DNA of 64,000 nucleotides from a virus. Positions 9,784-62,219 of this stretch are shown in pieces (the first letter of the stretch is position 1; every line of letters begins with the position of its first letter). The DNA lies in IMG/VR virus record IMGVR_UViG_3300042259_000159. One strand, 5' to 3'. A program made the position numbers and the translations under genes. The notes under the pieces were generated by a model. That model worked only from the letters and a program-made list of their open reading frames with translations, did not search any database and was not told where the DNA came from.

Positions 9784-10050
9784 CTATTCCCAGCGACCAC
9801 GGTAGTCAGGTGTATTGTATGCTGCTCTTATGTACGCTACTATTCCATCGAACACGTCTTTTTTCATTGTTAAAGGGGCAGACAGAGCGTCTATGTATGC
9901 GAGGTTACGCCCGATGCGTTTCACATACTGTTCAGAGTTACAGCATCGGGCAAGGCCAAATGCTACAGCATCCCCTACCTTGCGGTAGAAAACAGTAGCG
10001 CCACCAAACGGATGAAGACGCAATTCACCTTTACGGCTTATGTAGGGCAT
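9784..10050 (-). CDS. hypothetical protein, PFGGATV-motif paralog family
   Basis: Track ORF 88 aa with HPFGGATVFYR...GLARCCNSEQYVKRIGR; tandem paralog of 9428-9766. Confidence 0.55.
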   Translation of the reverse strand: MPYISRKGELRLHPFGGATVFYRKVGDAVAFGLARCCNSEQYVKRIGRNLAYIDALSAPLTMKKDVFDGIVAYIRAAYNTPDYRGRWE

Positions 10051-32493: not shown

Positions 32494-32928
32494 ATGACCG
32501 AAAACAATTGTACAAAGTTTCTTGCACGTGAGAAGTACGAGGAAGCATGGATTTGCATGATAACAGCACTGGAACATATTGAGAGTGCAAAATACCTTAT
32601 CGGGCTTTGTAACAGTGTGCATGTCGGCGATGCAACCTATAACCTGAATCGTGCCACCGATGATATGCAAACGGCACACAGTTTCTACAAAGAATTCTTC
32701 GATACTCTGACGATTGGTTGTGATGACGAGGATGAACAAAATGTTTATCAAAGTGAGGAAGAAATTAACGAGGCACTGTGTGACCTAGACATAATGGGGA
32801 TAGACAGTAAAACTGTATGCATTTCTTGTTTTTATTGTGGGGGTATTTGCCCCAAAGACCCCGTTAGTTGCAATCAAGCAACACATTTTTATAAGTTCCT
32901 TCACAAGGATACAGGAGAGCGAGCATGA
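32494..32928 (+). CDS. hypothetical Cys-rich protein
   Basis: ATG at 32494 within track ORF 32488-32928. Confidence 0.4.
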   Translation: MTENNCTKFLAREKYEEAWICMITALEHIESAKYLIGLCNSVHVGDATYNLNRATDDMQTAHSFYKEFFDTLTIGCDDEDEQNVYQSEEEINEALCDLDIMGIDSKTVCISCFYCGGICPKDPVSCNQATHFYKFLHKDTGERA

Positions 32929-33263
32929 ACAAGTGTCAAGAAGAAATCCTTACTTTTGTTGTTGGGGTGGTTGCGGAGATGGAGCGTGAAACAGGAGCGG
33001 ATATTTTTGTAAGTTACTCTCCCCACGTGTCTTGCATCAATGTTAATTTCCACGCTAATAAGTGGATAAGTGGACATGGATCAGATTTTGATGTGGTGTT
33101 TTATCTTGATTCTGAAGAGTATGATGATATAGCTGAAAGTTTCCTGTCTCTGGAGAATGCTAGGGATTTGATTGAAAAGCATCAACAAGATACCCTGCTT
33201 AGAAAGCAAAAAGCCATTAAGGAACTTGAAGAGCAGCTTAAACGCCTGAAAGAAGAGCAGTAA
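32925..33263 (+). CDS. hypothetical protein with C-terminal coiled coil
   Basis: Track ORF 112 aa; start overlaps upstream stop. Confidence 0.45.
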   Translation: MNKCQEEILTFVVGVVAEMERETGADIFVSYSPHVSCINVNFHANKWISGHGSDFDVVFYLDSEEYDDIAESFLSLENARDLIEKHQQDTLLRKQKAIKELEEQLKRLKEEQ

Positions 33264-33270
33264 GTATTGA

Positions 33271-33296
33271 GGCCGGAAATAATCCGGCCTTTTTTA
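33271..33296 (+). terminator. rho-independent terminator
   Basis: ggccggaaataatccggcc hairpin followed by tttttt. Confidence 0.55.
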
Positions 33297-33446
33297 CGTC
33301 TAAATCCAGAGGACTTTTTCATTTTAAAAGGTCTAGAGAGGTTTTTCATTTTGGGAGGTCTAAAGAACATTTTCAATTTACAACCAAAAGTAAAAAGTCT
33401 AGAGAACATTTTTAATTTGAGGTCTAAAGAGGATTTTCATTTTCAG
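33297..33446. repeat. iteron-like array (about five degenerate 27-nt units)
   Basis: Units of the form (a)ggtctaRaga(N)ttttcatttt; the first ~80 nt are identical to 37871-37951. Confidence 0.6.
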
Positions 33447-33460
33447 ATTTTTGTATGAAA

Positions 33461-33600
33461 ATGATACTCATTATCACCGATAATGGTCGTTGAAAACGAC
33501 ATTCATTATCAACGATATTGATAATCATTTTCAATGATATTGAGTTTCATTATCAATCTAAATAGTAACTATTACTAATAATAAAAATTGTGCAGGGGCG
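33461..33600. repeat. cluster of ATTATCA-containing palindromes
   Basis: attatcaccgataat, cattatcaacgatattgataatca, ttcattatcaatc. Confidence 0.45.
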
Positions 33601-34555
33601 GTTTATAATGGATCTTAACCATGTGCCGGAATGCCTTTGATTTTTTCCTCGCTGGCAAAGACAGAATATTAAAAATGCAAACGGCGGTCAAGCGGAAAAT
33701 GAAAAAATATTAAAAATATTTTTTCGGCTTGCCATATCATTATATAGACGCTATATCCATCCCATACCACAGACAATGAATGGAACGCGGAGGAATGGAG
33801 TTTTTATTAAAAATCGTCTGAAAAACACTTGACAGTGATTCCGCTTTGTGTTTAGTTTTTCACCTACAAGAACACAAAAAAGAGGTAAAGAAAATGCCAA
33901 CCATGTATCAATTTGCTAGTGCAACGCCCTACATCATTATTATTGTATCCATGCTGATCTGTGTCGGGATCGGATCAACCCTTTCCAGTAAAAAAGATAG
34001 TAAGCACGCTTGGAACACAACATACAACGGTAAAAATATCTAGGAGGCTAAAAATGTCTGATTTTCTTACTCTTTTCAAGAGCATTGCGGCGGAGGTACT
34101 GGCCGAAGAGGAAACATCCCGCGCAGCTGCTACTACACTTGACGCTTGGCAATGGGCAACGGATGAAACGGACGGATTGCCCGAACAGGTATGCAAACAT
34201 ATAGGTCTGTGGGAGGAACAGGAAAATGAAAGATAAGCAGGTTTTGATTGATCTTGTCACGGCTTGCGGATACATTTGCATTCTTTTTGCTATCCTTTAT
34301 ATATGCCTTTTTATACATGCAGCCTAGTCGGGAGGTGTGAAATGCTTTTTTCAGATTTTTGTAGGGCGCTCCAGTGCACGCCGCTTGCCGGTATCCGGAT
34401 TATTGAGGAGTGGGCAGAAAAGCACAGTACAGTCACCTGTAAAAATATTGTACCGTTCCGGCCTTGGCGGGCTGGACAAATATATGTTAATGAATTGTGC
34501 CCTGAAATATTTGACACCGTATATAAATGGTTTATCGGCAGGGGGGTAGTAAATA

Positions 34556-37478: not shown

Positions 37479-37808
37479 ATGACCACAGTGAAAAGATTAC
37501 AGAAGCTGGTTGAAGACATTGCAAGAGACATTGAAAACGGCGTAATTGATTGCGAACCCGTGGACGGTGAAGAGCCTACGGCATTTGATTACCTACAAAA
37601 CGCACTTGCTATTGAGTACATTGTCAGCAGCAGGAAAGAATATCTTGGCGCACGCATCATGGTTGCATGTGGCGGACCTGATATCTGGATTAATACACGC
37701 ACAAACACTGTGGAAGGCTACTGGGGCTCTAATGCAGCCGTGGCCATGGCCTCGGCATTGTTCCGCCGTCACGGAAAAGCGCTGGAGGAATTATACTTGT
37801 GTAGTTAG
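37479..37808 (+). CDS. hypothetical protein
   Basis: Track ORF 109 aa with RBS aaggag. Confidence 0.4.
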   Translation: MTTVKRLQKLVEDIARDIENGVIDCEPVDGEEPTAFDYLQNALAIEYIVSSRKEYLGARIMVACGGPDIWINTRTNTVEGYWGSNAAVAMASALFRRHGKALEELYLCS

Positions 37809-37843
37809 GGGCTACGTTAAAATTAGCAAAAACTTCAAAAAAG

Positions 37844-37871
37844 GCGTTGACAAGGTTGACGCCTTTTTTAC
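37844..37871 (+). terminator. rho-independent terminator
   Basis: ggcgttgacaaggttgacgcc hairpin followed by tttttt. Confidence 0.5.
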
Positions 37872-37951
37872 GTCTAAATCCAGAGGACTTTTTCATTTTA
37901 AAAGGTCTAGAGAGGTTTTTCATTTTGGGAGGTCTAAAGAACATTTTCAAT
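37871..37951. repeat. second copy of iteron-like array
   Basis: acgtctaaatccagaggactttttcattttaaaaggtctagagaggtttttcattttgggaggtctaaagaacattttcaat, identical to the start of 33297-33446. Confidence 0.6.
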
Positions 37952-38080
37952 CCGATGCAGCCTTTGCCGCGTATAGCCGTGACCGCATTGGTTTGGATGG
38001 AGAACTGGAGGGATTGTATGCGTGTAAGCCTCCGCTAACACACATAAGGCTGCTTACAGTAAAAATAGAAAAACTATTCA

Positions 38081-38116
38081 AAACCGCTTGACAAAACCGG
38101 GCGGTTCTTCTATTGT
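38081..38116 (+). promoter_or_regulatory. composite terminator-promoter element (copy 2)
   Basis: aaaccgcTTGACAaaaccgggcggttcttcTATTGTgttcct; near-identical to 31611-31647. Confidence 0.45.
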
Positions 38117-39119: not shown

Positions 39120-39370
39120 CAAGTGTTACTGATTTTGAATATCATTATCAATGGAGATATTGTCATTGAACAGCATAACGCTGTTATACACACGGATCAA
39201 TTAATTCCCATCGATCAGCATTTCGCTGGTGCTGCTGGAATCAACACTTGTTGAGATAATGACATCCATTATCAATGCTGTTCAATGGCCGTTTTCAACG
39301 GCAATGTTTCACGTGAAACATTCCTGATCAGAATACTGGCAAGAAACATTGATAACGACAATCTTTATCA
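39120..39370. repeat. palindrome/repeat cluster in large non-coding region
   Basis: Repeated cattatcaatg units, palindrome gtttcacgtgaaac, and gttgataacgacaatctttatcaac inverted repeat. Confidence 0.4.
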
Positions 39371-39442: not shown

Positions 39443-39471
39443 TTGACATCTTCCTGATATTTTGATATTAT
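39443..39471 (+). promoter_or_regulatory. sigma70-like promoter
   Basis: TTGACA, 17 nt spacer, TATTAT. Confidence 0.35.
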
Positions 39472-39967
39472 AGAAAGAGAGGCGTATGGGGAGGGGGGAG
39501 GCCTTAAGCACCGGTATACTTATATACCAAGTACCCCTATAGGTTCATGCCGGATATTTGCCCAAGTACCCCTATAATGGTATACCGATATACTTATACA
39601 CACCATATCTGCACACAGAAGGTATAGGGGGATATTTCCTGCTAGGATATTTCCACACAAAAAGGGGGAGTATATGGGAGGGATATTCCTGAAGGGAATA
39701 GATATTTTAGACAGGTATATATATATTATCTCTATGCTATATATACTCTATATATGTATATTCCATATATACATATTTCTTCTTATTCTATTCTTCTATT
39801 TCTACTAATGAGATATATACATATTAGGACAGCATATGCATGTGTCTACATCACATGTAGACACATATATACACATTCCCTTTCCTAACGGACAGCCGTA
39901 TTATAACATATTTTTTGGATTTTGTCAAGAACTTTTTTGTATTTCACATGGAAAATATTTCATACCG

Positions 39968-40085
39968 GCTATTCCTTTTGGGAATAGCCTATTCCATTTT
40001 GGAATAACCATTCCTAGGGGAATAGCCTGTTCCCAGAGGGAACAGACATACCCGAAGGGAATAGATATGCCCATTGGAAATAGCA
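39968..40085. repeat. array of GGAATAG-containing direct and inverted repeats
   Basis: gggaatagcc, ggaatagcctattcc, gaatagcctgttccc, gggaatagatatgccc, ggaaatagc within about 120 nt. Confidence 0.45.
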
Positions 40086-40414
40086 AAAGCCCACACACCT
40101 GTAAAGATATGTGGGCTGATAACATTAACAGTGTTAATAACATTAGCGAAGCTAATAATATTTTATCCTATCAATCAATACCTGTAGCTACGTGATCGAG
40201 GCAGAGCACCTGTGGTCGAGGTAGAACACCTTGCCAATGCAGAAGGTATGCCCTTCCTTCATAATGCGGAATGTTGCTTGCATGGGCACATTTACCTCCA
40301 CTACCCACTGGATGCCTTGTTCAGGCCAGAAACTCAAGCTGCCGTTAAACTCAAAAGGCTTTGCTTCACAACCCTTCACAGCGGTATTTATCTCTTCCAT
40401 ACCATCTTCACCAG

Positions 40415-45138: not shown

Positions 45139-45693
45139 TTAAAGCCTTTCATGTTGTTCTTTCTCCATAATATATTGACAAATAACTTTTGCTGCTTTTT
45201 CGTCACTTACTAGGTTTATAAAAGGTATATTATACTCTATAAGAAAGTTTTTTATCTTAATATCTACCTCTTCAGCCTCTTTTACATCCTTTTGGGTGCG
45301 TCCCTTTGAATCATAGGGGAACTTTTTATTTCTTTCCAAGAGGATGTTAACGTTGTCATATGCATTGAAAGTTTCAACAACAAGGTGTTGAAATGCGTTT
45401 TTAGGAACAAAACCATCAACCTTGCAATAGATGGCTGATAGGAGTATAGGGCTGTCTGTAACCACGAAGTCTGCCTGCCCATAGATACTTTTCTGTTGCA
45501 GTAGCTGTTTTGCGAAAATGTAGAGTTGCTCTTCTTGGAGAATCTTCTCTCTGCCCTGATATACCAAGCTTTTAGCATACTCTGTTACCAGTTCAGTGCT
45601 CAGATGTCTCCTTTTCATTACTGAGAAAAGATCCGCAGCGACAGTGCTTTTACCGGCACAAGGCCCACCAAAGATGTTGATTATTTTAGTCAT
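45139..45693 (-). CDS. P-loop nucleotide kinase-like protein
   Basis: Track ORF 184 aa; Walker A GGPCAGKST at the N-terminus. Confidence 0.6.
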   Translation of the reverse strand: MTKIINIFGGPCAGKSTVAADLFSVMKRRHLSTELVTEYAKSLVYQGREKILQEEQLYIFAKQLLQQKSIYGQADFVVTDSPILLSAIYCKVDGFVPKNAFQHLVVETFNAYDNVNILLERNKKFPYDSKGRTQKDVKEAEEVDIKIKNFLIEYNIPFINLVSDEKAAKVICQYIMEKEQHERL

Positions 45694-46211
45694 TATCCCT
45701 CCAAACCTTCTTCAACAATCCACCAATTCTTTACAAGGAGTGTGTGGTATACACTCCCGTCCTCCAAAGACACCACACACGCAAGAGGGATTCCATCATA
45801 TATACCAATAACCTCTTGAATAATAAAAACACACCCCTCCTCTACCTGACACGGCTCATACTCCTCAACAAAATAATCATAGAGATTACCATCCTTGAGA
45901 ACAATAACGGCAAGCATCCCCACCAAAACCTCTTTAGTTTGTGTAACAACGGCTGTACCGTTTGAGGTGGCCTTGCTACCAATCAGAGAAGCTGCGCTAC
46001 TATCTCTTACAAGGCTCAGGAGAAATACCATCCCCACAAGCAGATAAATTATTAGTAAAGTCTTCTTCTTCAACAAAATACTCCTTTTTTTGTATTCTTG
46101 CTTTATATTCTTCCCCACAATCCAAACAAACAACGGATCCCGCTGTGTAGACACCGTCCGGTTGTTCTTCAAACTGAAAAACACATCTCCCTGAGCACTT
46201 CGGGCAAACCA

Positions 46212-55122: not shown

Positions 55123-55206
55123 TGGTAGGAGAAGAGAGATTCGAACTCTCAAGGAATAATCCGTCGAGGCTTAAACTCGATGTGTTTACCATTTCACCAT
55201 TCTCCC
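55123..55206 (-). tRNA. tRNA-Leu (anticodon TAA), type II, CCA encoded
   Basis: Hand-folded cloverleaf: acceptor GGGAGAA/TTCTCCT, anticodon stem TCGAG/CTCGA with loop TTTAAGC, long variable arm, T-arm GAGAG-TTCGAAT-CTCTC. Confidence 0.7.
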
Positions 55207-55245
55207 GTATTTTTTATCTACCATTCCGCCATTCCCGCATTTATT

Positions 55246-55323
55246 TGGTACCCACTGTGAGATTCGAACCCACACTAATCAGTTTCTAAGACTGATGCCT
55301 CTGCCAAGTTGGGCTATACCAGT
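55246..55323 (-). tRNA. aberrant tRNA-like gene (anticodon TAG, type I architecture, poorly paired acceptor stem)
   Basis: Good D-, anticodon (TCAGT-CTTAGAA-ACTGA) and T-arms, but 5' acceptor ACTGGTA mispairs with the adjacent 3' strand AGTGGGT. Confidence 0.4.
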
Positions 55324-56574: not shown

Positions 56575-56860
56575 GTTGGTGCAGATTGTGAACGTACCCC
56601 CGCCTATAGAGGCGGAAGCTTCCTGCTTCAGCGAGAACAGCACCAGTAACTCCGAAGAGTTGTGGCGAATTACACTCTCTCCACAGGCGTAAATTCCCGT
56701 GCGACCCACGGTACTTTATGAGTTACGCTAGGCAGATATTCGCCCAGCTTCTTCTCTAATATTTATTGCAGCGTTCTTGTCACGGTTATGATGACTGCCA
56801 CACTTAAGGCAATCCCATTCCCGCACAGACAAGTCTTTGGTATCCTTGTTCTGGTAGCCA
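56575..56860 (-). ncRNA. candidate TnpB guide RNA (omega/reRNA) region at the element right end
   Basis: By analogy with IS200/IS605 TnpB systems the guide RNA overlaps the tnpB 3' end and runs to the right-end hairpin (56600-56615). Not folded or aligned. Confidence 0.3.
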
Positions 56861-57965
56861 CAGACATGGCATAGCTGACTGCTTGGATACCATTTGTCTA
56901 TCTTGATAAGTTGCTTACCCTGCCATGCAAGTTTGTATTTCAGCATACTTGTGAACATGCTCCAGCCGTTGTCGGATATGGATTTACCAAAGTTGAACTT
57001 GCCACCCTTCTTTCGCTTCGCCATGTCCTTTACGCTAATGTCCTCTATGCCAATCACATCATAGCGGTCTGCAAGATAACGAGCTTTCTTATGCAGGAAG
57101 TCGCGGCGTTGATTAGCAATTTTCTCATGGAGTACAGCCAAACGTAGTCTTTGTTTATTCCTATTACGGCTCCCTTTTTGTCTCTTGGAGAGTTTTCTTT
57201 GTGCCTTGATCAATCTCTTTTCGGCTTCCCGTAAGAAATTTGGATAATCGGCGTTGTCCTCATCGGAAGCAACATACATCCCGTGCATAGCAAAATCCAA
57301 TCCAAGAAAATTCTTCGGTATGATGGGAAGTATTTGGTTTTCATACTCCACCAAAATACTAATATAGTATTTTCCTGACGGTGTTTTACTTATGGTTACA
57401 GTCTTTATGGTGCTATTCTCCATCAATGGACGATGCAGACACAGCTTTACCCAACCTATTTTCGGCAGCTTGACTTTGTTTCCCTCGATTCTTACAGAGC
57501 CATGTTGGTTGTTCGTAGAATATGAAGCATGACCCGCTTTCTTCGACTTGAAGCGTGGCTTGCAAAAATGCTTCCTATTGCTCCAAAAGTTGTTATACGC
57601 CTTGTTCAGGTTTATTTGGGCATTGGCGAGAGCAAGGCTGTCAACCTCTTTCAGCCAAGGAAACTCTTTCTTGTACTGTGCAGGTGTGTTGTTCAGCCTC
57701 TCTCCTGTTTCCTTATAGTGATCAAGACGATCTCCAAGCATCTTGTTATAGATGAATCTGGCACTGCCGAAAGTCTTGGCAAACATAATCTTCTGTTCAA
57801 TTGTCGGGTAGAGTCTATATCGGTATGCCTTATTCACTATAATCACCTGCCTTGATTTTCTATGTATTTACGAATTGTCTCAAACGGAGCAATTATCTGG
57901 CTCAACTACTTACGTAAATTCGCTAGACACACCTTCATCCCCCACCTTAGAGGTGGAGGGCTTCT
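56590..57965 (-). mobile_element. IS200/IS605-family insertion element carrying tnpB only
   Basis: tnpB flanked by similar imperfect palindromes: cccgcctatagaggcgg (56600-56615) and ccaccttagaggtgg (57942-57956). No Y1 tnpA. Inserted between tandem tRNA-Leu genes and the rest of the tRNA array. Confidence 0.65.
56728..57846 (-). CDS. tnpB: TnpB (RuvC-like RNA-guided endonuclease, IS605 OrfB family)
   Basis: Track ORF 372 aa; N-terminal YRYRLYPT, RuvC-like region, C-terminal zinc finger CHVCGY...CLKCG. Confidence 0.85.
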   Translation of the reverse strand: MIIVNKAYRYRLYPTIEQKIMFAKTFGSARFIYNKMLGDRLDHYKETGERLNNTPAQYKKEFPWLKEVDSLALANAQINLNKAYNNFWSNRKHFCKPRFKSKKAGHASYSTNNQHGSVRIEGNKVKLPKIGWVKLCLHRPLMENSTIKTVTISKTPSGKYYISILVEYENQILPIIPKNFLGLDFAMHGMYVASDEDNADYPNFLREAEKRLIKAQRKLSKRQKGSRNRNKQRLRLAVLHEKIANQRRDFLHKKARYLADRYDVIGIEDISVKDMAKRKKGGKFNFGKSISDNGWSMFTSMLKYKLAWQGKQLIKIDKWYPSSQLCHVCGYQNKDTKDLSVREWDCLKCGSHHNRDKNAAINIREEAGRISA

Positions 57966-58022: not shown

Positions 58023-58109
58023 TGGTGCCCAATGCAGGACTCGAACCTGCACGCCATTTCAGGCAGGAGGGCTTAAACCTCGTGTGTCTACCAATTCCAC
58101 CAATCGGGC
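58023..58109 (-). tRNA. tRNA-Leu (anticodon TAA), type II, CCA encoded
   Basis: Acceptor GCCCGAT/ATTGGGC, anticodon loop TTTAAGC, long variable arm, T-arm GCAGG-TTCGAGT-CCTGC. Confidence 0.65.
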
Positions 58110-58118
58110 TAAAATCTT

Positions 58119-58202
58119 TGGTGCCTCAGACAGGATTCGAACCTGCACGGATCTCTCCACTTGGTCCTAAGCCAAGCGTGTCTGCCATTCCACCACTGAG
58201 GC
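58119..58202 (-). tRNA. tRNA-Leu (anticodon TAG), type II, CCA encoded
   Basis: Acceptor GCCTCAG/CTGAGGC, anticodon stem CTTGG/CCAAG with loop CTTAGGA, long variable arm, T-arm GCAGG-TTCGAAT-CCTGT. Confidence 0.7.
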
Positions 58203-60713: not shown

Positions 60714-61423
60714 TTAGATAGTAAACAGTTTTTCAACACCTTTCTTGCTTCCCGTGTTCTTTGTCAGGCTGCTTACAATTTCTTTTTTCCAAATGCAAGT
60801 AAAATCTTCTGGAGCATTATATTCTGAAACAAACACCTTATGTCCCTCATTAGCCTTATCTCTGCACCACTGCCAAAACAACTCATGGTCAAAATCATTA
60901 GAGTACTTTGTTGTCCCTGAATAGGGCGGATCACAGTAGATTAAGCTGTTACTGGGGATATGTAGCTCATCATAAGGACAACACAAAAATTCTACATTTT
61001 GAATTAGCGAGGACTGTTTTATTGCTGATTGCTTACTACGTTTTGTTTGTATTATCATGTTTTCAATATCACCTTTTGTTCCTGCTTTGTCCCGCCTATA
61101 CCCCCCAAAAAATTTACCACCAAAAGACATTGAAAATGCTGTAAATCCAGTTAAACCATCAATATTTTTGTGTTTTTTCATTGAATTGTACATATCTTCT
61201 GTAATAATTTCAGGAATACTTTTTGGTGCATCGCGTATAAGTTTTAATGCTTCTATTACATACGGGCTGCAATGGCGGCCCCAATACGATTCCCATCAAC
61301 CTTATCAATCATGTTTCCACCTCCAACAAACGGTTCAACCCACCACTGGTCAGGTTTTCTTTCTGCAAGCATAATTGGGAGGATATACTTTGCTATTCTG
61401 TTTTTACTTCCCATGTATTTCAT
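60714..61423 (-). pseudogene. Dam-like N6-adenine DNA methyltransferase requiring a -1 frameshift
   Basis: N-terminal piece MKYMGSKNRIAKY...EPFVGGGNMIDKV (ATG 61421-61423 after AGGAGG) stops at 61256; the DPPY-containing C-terminal part (track ORF 60714-61193) continues in the -1 frame as ...PYVIEALKLIRD. Frames diverge near a GGGGCC run around 61255-61270. Confidence 0.55.
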
Positions 61424-61772
61424 ACTTACCTCCTGTTTTTGTTTTAGTTGTAAGGTGCTTTTACCTGTCAATATCAAACTACCCCTATTCCCCCTGTTTG
61501 TCAATACCTTATTCTTATCTAAACATAAGATATATATATTATATATATATTCTTTATATAATATAAATATATATACTTTATATATAGTATATTTATATAA
61601 TATATATATGTATATAATATATATACTCCTACTCACTACGAGACACATACATAATATATACATTAACCCTTCCTGCAAAGGAAGCCGTAGGATACCATAA
61701 AAAAGAGATTTTGTCAAGCATTATTTTAAGAAATGTTAAAAATAATTTCCTAACCTAATCTCTATTTTTTAC

Positions 61773-62051: not shown

Positions 62052-62080
62052 TTGACAAATGGTTAAAAGTGTGTTATAAT
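62052..62080 (+). promoter_or_regulatory. sigma70 consensus promoter
   Basis: TTGACA, 17 nt spacer, TATAAT; upstream of 62220-62540. Confidence 0.5.
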
Positions 62081-62219
62081 AGGTTTTGAATTAATAATTA
62101 AAAATGATAATGAATTTCATTGTCTTTTGTAATCTTCTAAGATGTCTTAGATAGGCATCCGAAAAGTATAGGGGAGTTTCCCTCCTTTTCTCCCCTATAA
62201 AATATTAACAGGAGGTAAT

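Follow-up and report, generated by a model that had tools for sequence, protein, structure and literature searches.

A conserved five-unit direct-repeat array adjoining tandem Fur-box-like sites in the early region of an uncultivated lytic-type phage

The window, i.e. the whole 64,000-nt stretch of DNA analysed here, belongs to an uncultivated phage of lytic type which encodes a primase-helicase, PolA, a CCA-adding enzyme, NrdD, a ligase and eight tRNAs. It is 100% identical to the IMG/VR contig 3300042267_000152 and to contigs from two sister JGI samples; no phage of the INPHARED collection matches it at the DNA level, and the best PolA identity (40%) is to the Vibrio phages PWH3a-P1 and ICP1. 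From ca. 20 kb to 39.5 kb all genes lie on the plus strand and are mostly small ORFans with TTGACA promoters of their own. In other parts of the window, a tRNA-Leu(taa)/tRNA-Leu(tag) pair occurs twice (55123–55314 and 58023–58202), flanking an IS-type transposase gene (phrog_506, 56728–57846). A 20-nt tandem repeat of 3.4 copies (CTATTCCTTTGGGAATAGC, internally palindromic) is located at 39969–40042 inside a called 119-aa ORF (39836–40195), and a weak Rfam OmrA-B look-alike at 40082–40188 on the minus strand (26 bits versus a gathering score of 40).

The locus described here occupies a 630-nt non-coding gap (33264–33893, 33% GC) between two rightward transcription units. The gene upstream of the gap (32925–33263, plus strand, stop codon TAA) codes for an acidic protein of 112 residues and is followed by an intrinsic terminator (33269 to 33295/33296, plus strand; −17.6 kcal/mol, z = −4.5), which consists of GAGGCCGGAAATAATCCGGCCTT and T6 with the stem-loop at 33269–33291. 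The 112-aa protein was considered as a binder of the array described below and set aside because its AF2 model is of low confidence (pLDDT 68) and matches no fold, and because none of the 10 proteins sampled from its 43 remote homologues has an informative Pfam family. A search for its locus by alignment in viral contigs and genomes retrieved nothing new.

An array of five repeat units, all non-coding and in the same orientation, opens at the T-tract of this terminator, which forms its first T-rich block, and extends over 147 nt (33297–33443, plus strand). The units share the motif GTCTARAG-N4-TTTTYMWTTT, each core thus being bipartite with two conserved blocks around four variable bases. The cores occupy positions 33304–33325, 33331–33352, 33358–33379, 33397–33418 and 33422–33443, all on the plus strand, and are arranged as three units, a spacer of 12–13 nt and two further units, with start-to-start distances of 27, 27, 39 and 25 nt. 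Unit 1 (ATCCAGAG...) is the most divergent one, deviating from the motif at two positions and preceded by an extra GTCTAAA (33298–33304). Two sub-types can be distinguished, characterized by ...AGAGG.TTTTCATTTT in units 1, 2 and 5 and by ...AGAACATTTTYAATTT in units 3 and 4. The original prediction had described about five degenerate 27-nt units behind a terminator; this description is borne out, TRF reporting a period of 27 both here and at the second locus discussed below.

The motif GTCTARAGRNNNTTTTYMWTTT matches the 64-kb window eight times at up to two mismatches, always within these two loci, compared to 0.06 matches in shuffled sequences. A general promoter motif of the phage could be ruled out, since GTCTARAG and the full motif are absent upstream of the other genes. 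Comparison by eye with the motifs of sigma-E/ECF, sigma-54, CRP, MetJ, OmpR, ToxR/ToxT and Ter, taken from general knowledge and not computed, revealed none fitting all units. The locus has no match among 50,697 phage records (megablast, blastn) and 72,556 plasmids (blastn), and a scan of 185,579 bacterial and archaeal genomes gave no match to the motif; the corresponding scans detected only the source contig and single chance matches in viral contigs, and only the contig of L059, one of the relatives introduced below, in JGI metagenomes.

A linker of 12 nt (CAGATTTTTGTA, 33444–33455, plus strand), which is invariant in the relatives covering it, connects the array to a second one (33456–33560) composed of four tandem 19-mers that resemble Fur boxes, starting at 33457, 33492, 33514 and 33536 with a period of 22 nt, as also detected by TRF. 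The Fur-box consensus, reportedly established by de Lorenzo, Escolar, and Baichoo and Helmann, is GATAATGATAATCATTATC. The 19-mers in the window deviate from it at two to four positions (15–17 of 19 matching); sites with at most three mismatches did not occur in any of 30 shuffles. When the relatives are included, this array comprises four to six sites with 15–18 of 19 matches, the relatives having more regular arrays in which four or five units are exactly 22 nt long and the best sites reach 18/19. The number of units differs between lineages and the positions specifying G or C are kept in every unit; G1, A2, G7, A8, C13, A14, T15, T16, T18 and C19 are retained. By its sequence, with several sites matching the 19-bp consensus, the 22-nt array qualifies as a Fur-box cluster. 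The second of its units bears a 13-nt hairpin insertion (GTCGTTGAAAACGAC, 33480–33500) present in the window and L058 and absent from L057, L060 and L061.

Altogether, the window contains seven such sites with two to four mismatches in two clusters and an additional one at 62106. Those outside the array, with three or four mismatches, are found at 39131–39149, 39255–39273 and 39351–39369, upstream of the strongest promoter of that region (39443–39471, TTGACA-17-TATTAT with TG), and at 62106–62124, where a consensus TTGACA-17-TATAAT promoter (62052–62080) lies ca. 25 nt upstream and a gene start (62221) follows; a weaker one is positioned at 45679–45697. Clusters of two to five Fur-box-like sites, with as few as one mismatch, were also observed in non-coding DNA of viral contigs unrelated to this phage (L070–L075, sharing one short tblastx match only), e.g. 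at 9939–9969 of L070 and 2748–2914 of L072, where they adjoin long AT palindromes and G-rich motifs. No second repeat array was found beside the clusters in these contigs. Fur boxes thus seem to be a recurrent feature of uncultivated phages, and their presence in unrelated contigs makes Fur, as a host factor common to these phages, a more plausible ligand of the sites than a phage-specific protein.

The remaining part of the gap is conserved as well. The stretch 33561–33690 contains an invariant TATAAT (33604–33609), shows zero to five differences per 40 nt among the relatives and has no significant RNA structure. Its end overlaps a predicted leftward promoter (33663–33691, minus strand; CCGCTTGACC-17-TATTCT, 9 of 12 consensus positions), a reverse-oriented member of the CGCTTGAC early-promoter family of the phage, which is aimed at the Fur-box-like sites and the array and is kept in L058, L060 and L061. 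The next gene block is preceded by a rightward early promoter (33829–33857, plus strand) with a TTGACA −35 and a weak −10 element, the first ATG being at 33894. A clearly positioned conserved promoter for the array to regulate was not found, the candidates being weak consensus matches. Two tiny ORFs between the invariant TATAAT and the leftward promoter-like site, MDLNHVPECL (33609–33641, plus strand) and M[VI]KIHYKPPLH[ND]F[YH]Y (33626–33579, minus strand), are open in all relatives and are too short to judge.

Six relative contigs (L057–L062) from ENA and JGI metagenome samples, representing at least four variant lineages, were available for comparison; among them the 112-aa protein forms three variant clusters with 96%, 86% and 87% amino-acid identity. 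The protein is always linked to the array, a linkage that is subject to ascertainment bias as all relatives were located via its gene. The CCA-adding enzyme was of no use as an alternative route to non-coding comparisons, its next relatives being 43% identical and not syntenic. A few kb upstream of the array, L057 encodes a protein of 649 aa (880–2829) that belongs to the RlaP family; it shows a faint match to LAGLIDADG, possibly an intein or homing endonuclease insertion.

The terminator and the five-unit array are present in all six relative contigs and the downstream region in all five that are long enough. In the three diverged lineages, the 112-aa gene is 87.6–87.9% identical to the window at the DNA level, with pS values of 0.32–0.34 (dS 0.42–0.46) and pN values of 0.064–0.077, and the terminator 84%, its stem being retained and its loop variable; the corresponding values are 96.6–98.6% for the array and 100% for the 12-nt linker. 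The divergence falls at ca. 33285, at the same point in all three lineages, and the two to six differences per 147 nt of the array contrast significantly with the divergence of the adjacent gene (Fisher p = 3.5e-5 to 4e-3). Number and spacing of the units are constant, with the sole exception of L060 and L061, where the long spacer has lost 1 nt and the third distance is 38 instead of 39 nt. Of seven variable sites, five fall into the 37 nt of linkers and spacer and two into the 110 nt of the cores (p = 0.011), both of the latter affecting the already degenerate R of GTCTARAG. As the deletion in L060 and L061 also shifts the frame of the only ORFs spanning the array (33267–33458, plus strand; 33182–33409, minus strand) and alters nothing but the long spacer, a protein-coding repeat can be ruled out.

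The original prediction had named the absence of the repeats from related phages as the finding that would speak against it; at the first locus they are present in all six relative contigs, and the sequence comparison indicates that they are under purifying selection there. Conservation, core-sparing variation, broken reading frames and the lack of an RNA structure signal (see below) together point to the array as a constrained non-coding element, of which the unit cores are the selected part. Part of the high identity could be due not to constraint but to the block having spread recently by recombination; mosaicism is evident from jumps in identity between segments and from neighbouring genes that differ among the relatives.

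A part of the array recurs at a distance of ca. 4.5 kb. The identical recurrence behind a terminator hairpin had been predicted correctly, whereas its length had been underestimated at about 80 nt: 91 nt (33287–33377) are 100% identical to 37861–37951 on the plus strand, comprising the T-tract and units 1–3. The left end of the duplicate falls within the 3′ arm and T-tract of both hairpins (GCCTTTTTTACG...), and at its right end the last 3 nt of unit 3 are lacking. The second hairpin (37837–37869, plus strand; −17.3 kcal/mol, z = −4.4) carries a TTGACA in its 5′ arm (37847–37852). The same arrangement is found in three JGI assemblies (L051, L067 and L068), and L052, a Logan contig, breaks off at position 33316 of the window, after exactly the first 30 nt of the repeat. 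Logan contigs are presumably built with k = 31, and a k = 31 graph would branch where L052 ends. The three assemblies and the end point in another data set show the duplication to be real and not an artefact of assembly.

Orthologues of the gene preceding the second hairpin (37479–37808; 79–80% amino-acid identity) were detected in the same two samples as the array-bearing relatives, and in both contigs concerned (L064 and L065) no array units follow the gene. In L064 the orthologue is succeeded by a hairpin with a complete promoter GGCATTGACAAGGTTGGTGCCTTTTTCTATTAT (TTGACA-17-TATTAT, the −35 being in the stem) and then by other genes, in L065 directly by other genes. Compared to L064, the hairpin of the window shows compensatory stem changes and its −10 element is replaced from the T-tract on by the 91-nt fragment. 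This fragment runs straight into a remnant of 84 nt (37952–38035, plus strand) derived from the 3′ end of a gene homologous to 37479–37808. The remnant is 83% identical to the gene end of the relatives and only 60% to that of the resident copy, and it marks the right-hand recombination junction; a second hairpin-promoter cassette follows at 38082–38116. Within the resident gene, the stretch 37735–37808 differs from L064 and L065 by a −4/+4 indel pair, a compensated frameshift resulting in a different C-terminal peptide, and the displaced remnant retains the orthologue-like sequence, unlike the resident 3′ end. Neither this gene nor the gene for a 144-aa protein has relatives in the PDB.

The replacement of the −10 element of a hairpin-embedded promoter and the abutting gene remnant indicate that the second copy is a strain-specific recombination scar truncated to units 1–3. 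It is probably not required, and the notion of the 4.5-kb duplicate as a second functional site had to be given up, as the copy is absent in two relatives and lies within the scar. We read the second copy as a side product of a recombination event at a hairpin cassette that combines terminator and promoter, with the crossover having taken place in the GCCTTTTT(T) shared by the two terminators. The 100% identity of the copies implies that the event is recent or that the copies are maintained by gene conversion. A block of early genes of 4.57 kb is enclosed by the two 91-nt direct repeats, which might serve as a substrate for deletion or mini-circle formation.

For the array at the first locus we tentatively propose a role as a multi-site protein-binding platform in a control region linked to Fur, a reading to which we attach somewhat less than even confidence. 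A single sequence-specific DNA-binding protein, of the host or the early phage repertoire, would dock on the array in several copies. The five head-to-tail sites of the array, of ca. 22 bp and grouped as three and two, would each offer the blocks GTCTARAG and TTTTYMWTTT about one helical turn apart. Iteron-binding initiators and factors of the AraC or response-regulator type likewise line up as monomers on head-to-tail bipartite sites. The proposal of protein docking is based on this arrangement and on the freedom of the linkers and the inter-block spacer to vary. A protein-binding array, as originally suggested, is the reading that accords best with the fixed five-unit architecture and the invariant cores; the initiator or partition identity given to it is taken up below. 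A domain search of the roughly 30 neighbouring small ORFs gave no binding partner and no DNA-binding, Rep or Par domain. Array, 12-nt linker, Fur-box-like array and counter-oriented early-type promoter might constitute a conserved control region of ca. 400 nt separating the two rightward transcription units, in which the two arrays appear to be associated as judged from adjacency and co-conservation. Its likeliest job would be transcriptional control or insulation of this boundary, possibly tied to the iron status of the host via Fur.

The most serious competitor is a replication origin, which we regard as unlikely. The 27-nt units would be the iterons of a phage initiator and the AT-rich Fur-box-like array would melt or recruit host factors; alternatively, initiation might be transcription-primed in the manner of T4 or T7, the transcript starting at the leftward promoter (33691) and entering the AT-rich repeats. 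The presence of direct repeats whose bipartite core measures ca. 22 bp in a 630-nt non-coding gap of 33% GC, their distance of ca. 8–10 kb from the primase-helicase and PolA genes, which lie upstream, the early-type promoter directed into the repeats and the strong conservation of the array all fit such a function. The 105-nt stretch adjoining the repeats is AT-rich (27.6% GC); however, it is organised as Fur-box-like sites, and the window has other tracts of far higher AT content. The array fails in three of four testable origin features. Iterons are expected as at least three direct repeats of 17–22 bp with a period of ca. 22 bp, whereas the 22-bp cores found here are spaced by 27, 27, 39 and 25 nt and are not helically phased. 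No Rep, O or initiator-like domain was found in the approximately 30 neighbouring ORFs, although proteins of unknown function could hide one, and no DnaA box with up to one mismatch exists in 33200–33950. The GC skew stays positive across the site, with genes on the same strand on both sides.

Non-coding regions at two strand switches (61504–61623 and 39.1–39.9 kb), which are far more AT-rich and rich in repeats, are better origin candidates than the array. The first belongs to an extreme AT tract (61504–61665; 8% GC over the 120 nt from 61504 to 61623) with TATATA-type palindromic repeats, which adjoins a divergent strand switch and the minimum of the cumulative GC skew and lies inside a probably spurious 153-aa ORF (61256–61717, minus strand, TTG start). 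The second contains an odd non-coding stretch (39480–39900) downstream of a strong promoter at a plus-to-minus strand switch, with CCAAGTACCCCTATA present twice (39527 and 39562), GGATATTTCC-like repeats, TATATA-rich tracts and only 20% GC at 39707–39826; perfect DnaA boxes occur at 39184 and 39594. It could be an origin or a terminus, or give rise to a non-coding RNA. Because of the unphased spacing, the lack of an initiator-like gene, DnaA box and skew change, the better candidates at the strand switches and the connection of the array to Fur boxes, which elsewhere in the window are placed at promoters, transcriptional control or insulation is preferred, with due reserve, over the doubtful origin, and the replication-initiator sites of the original prediction find no support.

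A second competitor, which appears quite improbable to us, operates at the RNA level. A non-coding transcript would start leftward at ca. 33656, run through the Fur boxes, which would serve as a roadblock under iron-replete conditions, and the array, and end near the terminator hairpin; its five AAAAUGAAAAWCCUCUYUAGAC repeats would act as a sponge or as antisense. The leftward promoter-like site belongs to the early-promoter family of the phage and is kept in relatives, all units have a single orientation, a conserved ORF is lacking and the hairpin 33269–33291 also folds in the reverse transcript owing to its sequence symmetry. On the other hand, the promoter matches the consensus at only 9 of 12 positions, the reverse hairpin is devoid of a U-tract and hence no terminator on the minus strand, the fold z-scores are +0.23 (plus strand) and +0.34 (minus strand) for the array and +0.8 for the 5′ part, and Rfam gave no match at E ≤ 1. 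A small regulatory RNA on the plus strand, also considered originally, is discounted by the same fold values and Rfam result and by the start of the array at the terminator T-tract, which leaves no room for a promoter.

It is likewise improbable, in our judgement, that the array has no function of its own and arose by slippage or recombination around a terminator/promoter cassette, comparable to degraded promoter-early stem-loops (PeSLs), the apparent conservation being due to a recent spread of the block among closely related phages. The mosaic character of the region and the active cassette recombination evident from the second copy in the same phage would be compatible with that origin, and pairs of units read on the minus strand as weak −35/−10 look-alikes, a pattern described for degraded PeSLs (PMC4122927). 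But the divergence drops with the same sharpness exactly at the array in at least three independent lineages, the variation is concentrated in the linkers and spares the cores, and the units keep their number and spacing, in contrast to the neighbouring Fur-box-like array with its changing copy number. Partition-protein sites are not supported, as the flanking ORFs contain no Par-like domains, parA/parB-type neighbours expected beside a centromere (parS/parC) are missing and the gene content is of lytic type.

The idea of a duplicated origin-like site does not hold; the array itself is real and selectively maintained. It ranks among the most conserved stretches of a fast-evolving early region in a phage lineage without cultured relatives, and something presumably binds or uses it, since it evolves many times more slowly than the synonymous sites next door. 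That the array is physically joined to Fur boxes in a row suggests a phage that reads the iron status of its host, a kind of sensing little documented for virulent phages. A more daring version of the protein-binding proposal, for which we see little probability at present, is that a lytic-type phage wires the Fur protein of its host into a control or initiation region, with the tandem 22-bp Fur-box array coupled via the invariant 12-nt linker to the five-site 27-bp array, such that iron status gates early transcription or the start of replication. If the array acts as a switch or an origin, its 147 bp would provide a short and well-defined handle for finding the cognate protein. The locus furthermore illustrates clearly, for a phage that is not of the T4 group, how hairpin cassettes of terminator and promoter act as recombination joints.

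Iterons of theta-type replicons are known from lambda ori, P1 oriR, R6K gamma and F oriS, and two clusters of initiator sites kilobases apart from P4 (ori/crr) and SPP1 (oriL/oriR). The phage array shares with theta-replicon iterons several non-coding, AT-rich repeats of ca. 20 bp in the same orientation with a conserved core and variable linkers. In contrast to iterons with their period of ca. 22, the units are spaced by 27, 27, 39 and 25 nt and start at a terminator T-tract, and the cognate initiator gene, the DnaA/IHF sites and the skew change of iteron origins were not found here. The second cluster 4.5 kb away superficially resembles P4 ori/crr; unlike the second clusters of P4 and SPP1, it is strain-specific and truncated.

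That Fur sites occur in clusters is nothing unusual in bacteria, where matches to the consensus can also be non-binding (PMC2189734). The neighbouring array resembles these clusters in its multiple sites with 15–18 of 19 consensus matches, but belongs to a lytic-type phage, does not clearly overlap a promoter and consists of non-overlapping sites with a 22-nt period instead of the 6-nt offsets typical of E. coli.

PeSL terminator/promoter cassettes of T4-type phages act as recombination joints (PMC2839356, PMC4122927). The hairpin before the second copy has the defining features of such a cassette, a stem-loop combined with a sigma70 early promoter, flanking variable ORFans and a position at indel junctions. 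Hairpins with a sigma70 promoter, whose −35 forms part of the loop or of the 5′ arm and whose −10 follows the stem, are seen at 37837–37875 (in L064; cf. 1970–2006 of that contig) and 38082–38116 (in the window). As in the PeSL systems, the hairpins flank small early ORFan genes, the 91-nt duplication has its left junction in a hairpin 3′ arm and T-tract, and the two direct repeats around early genes correspond to the substrate described for mini-circle deletion (PMC2839356, PMC4122927). In contrast to the PeSL-bearing phages, this phage is not T4-like, having a PolA and primase-helicase of the T7/ICP1 type, and the 27-nt units themselves are not PeSLs, which explain the duplication and not the array. 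To our knowledge, and as far as literature searches reach, the architecture of a Fur-box array combined with a 27-bp array is undescribed for phages. What is new compared to all these systems is a direct-repeat array with a 27-nt period that starts in a terminator T-tract and is coupled to a tandem Fur-box array.
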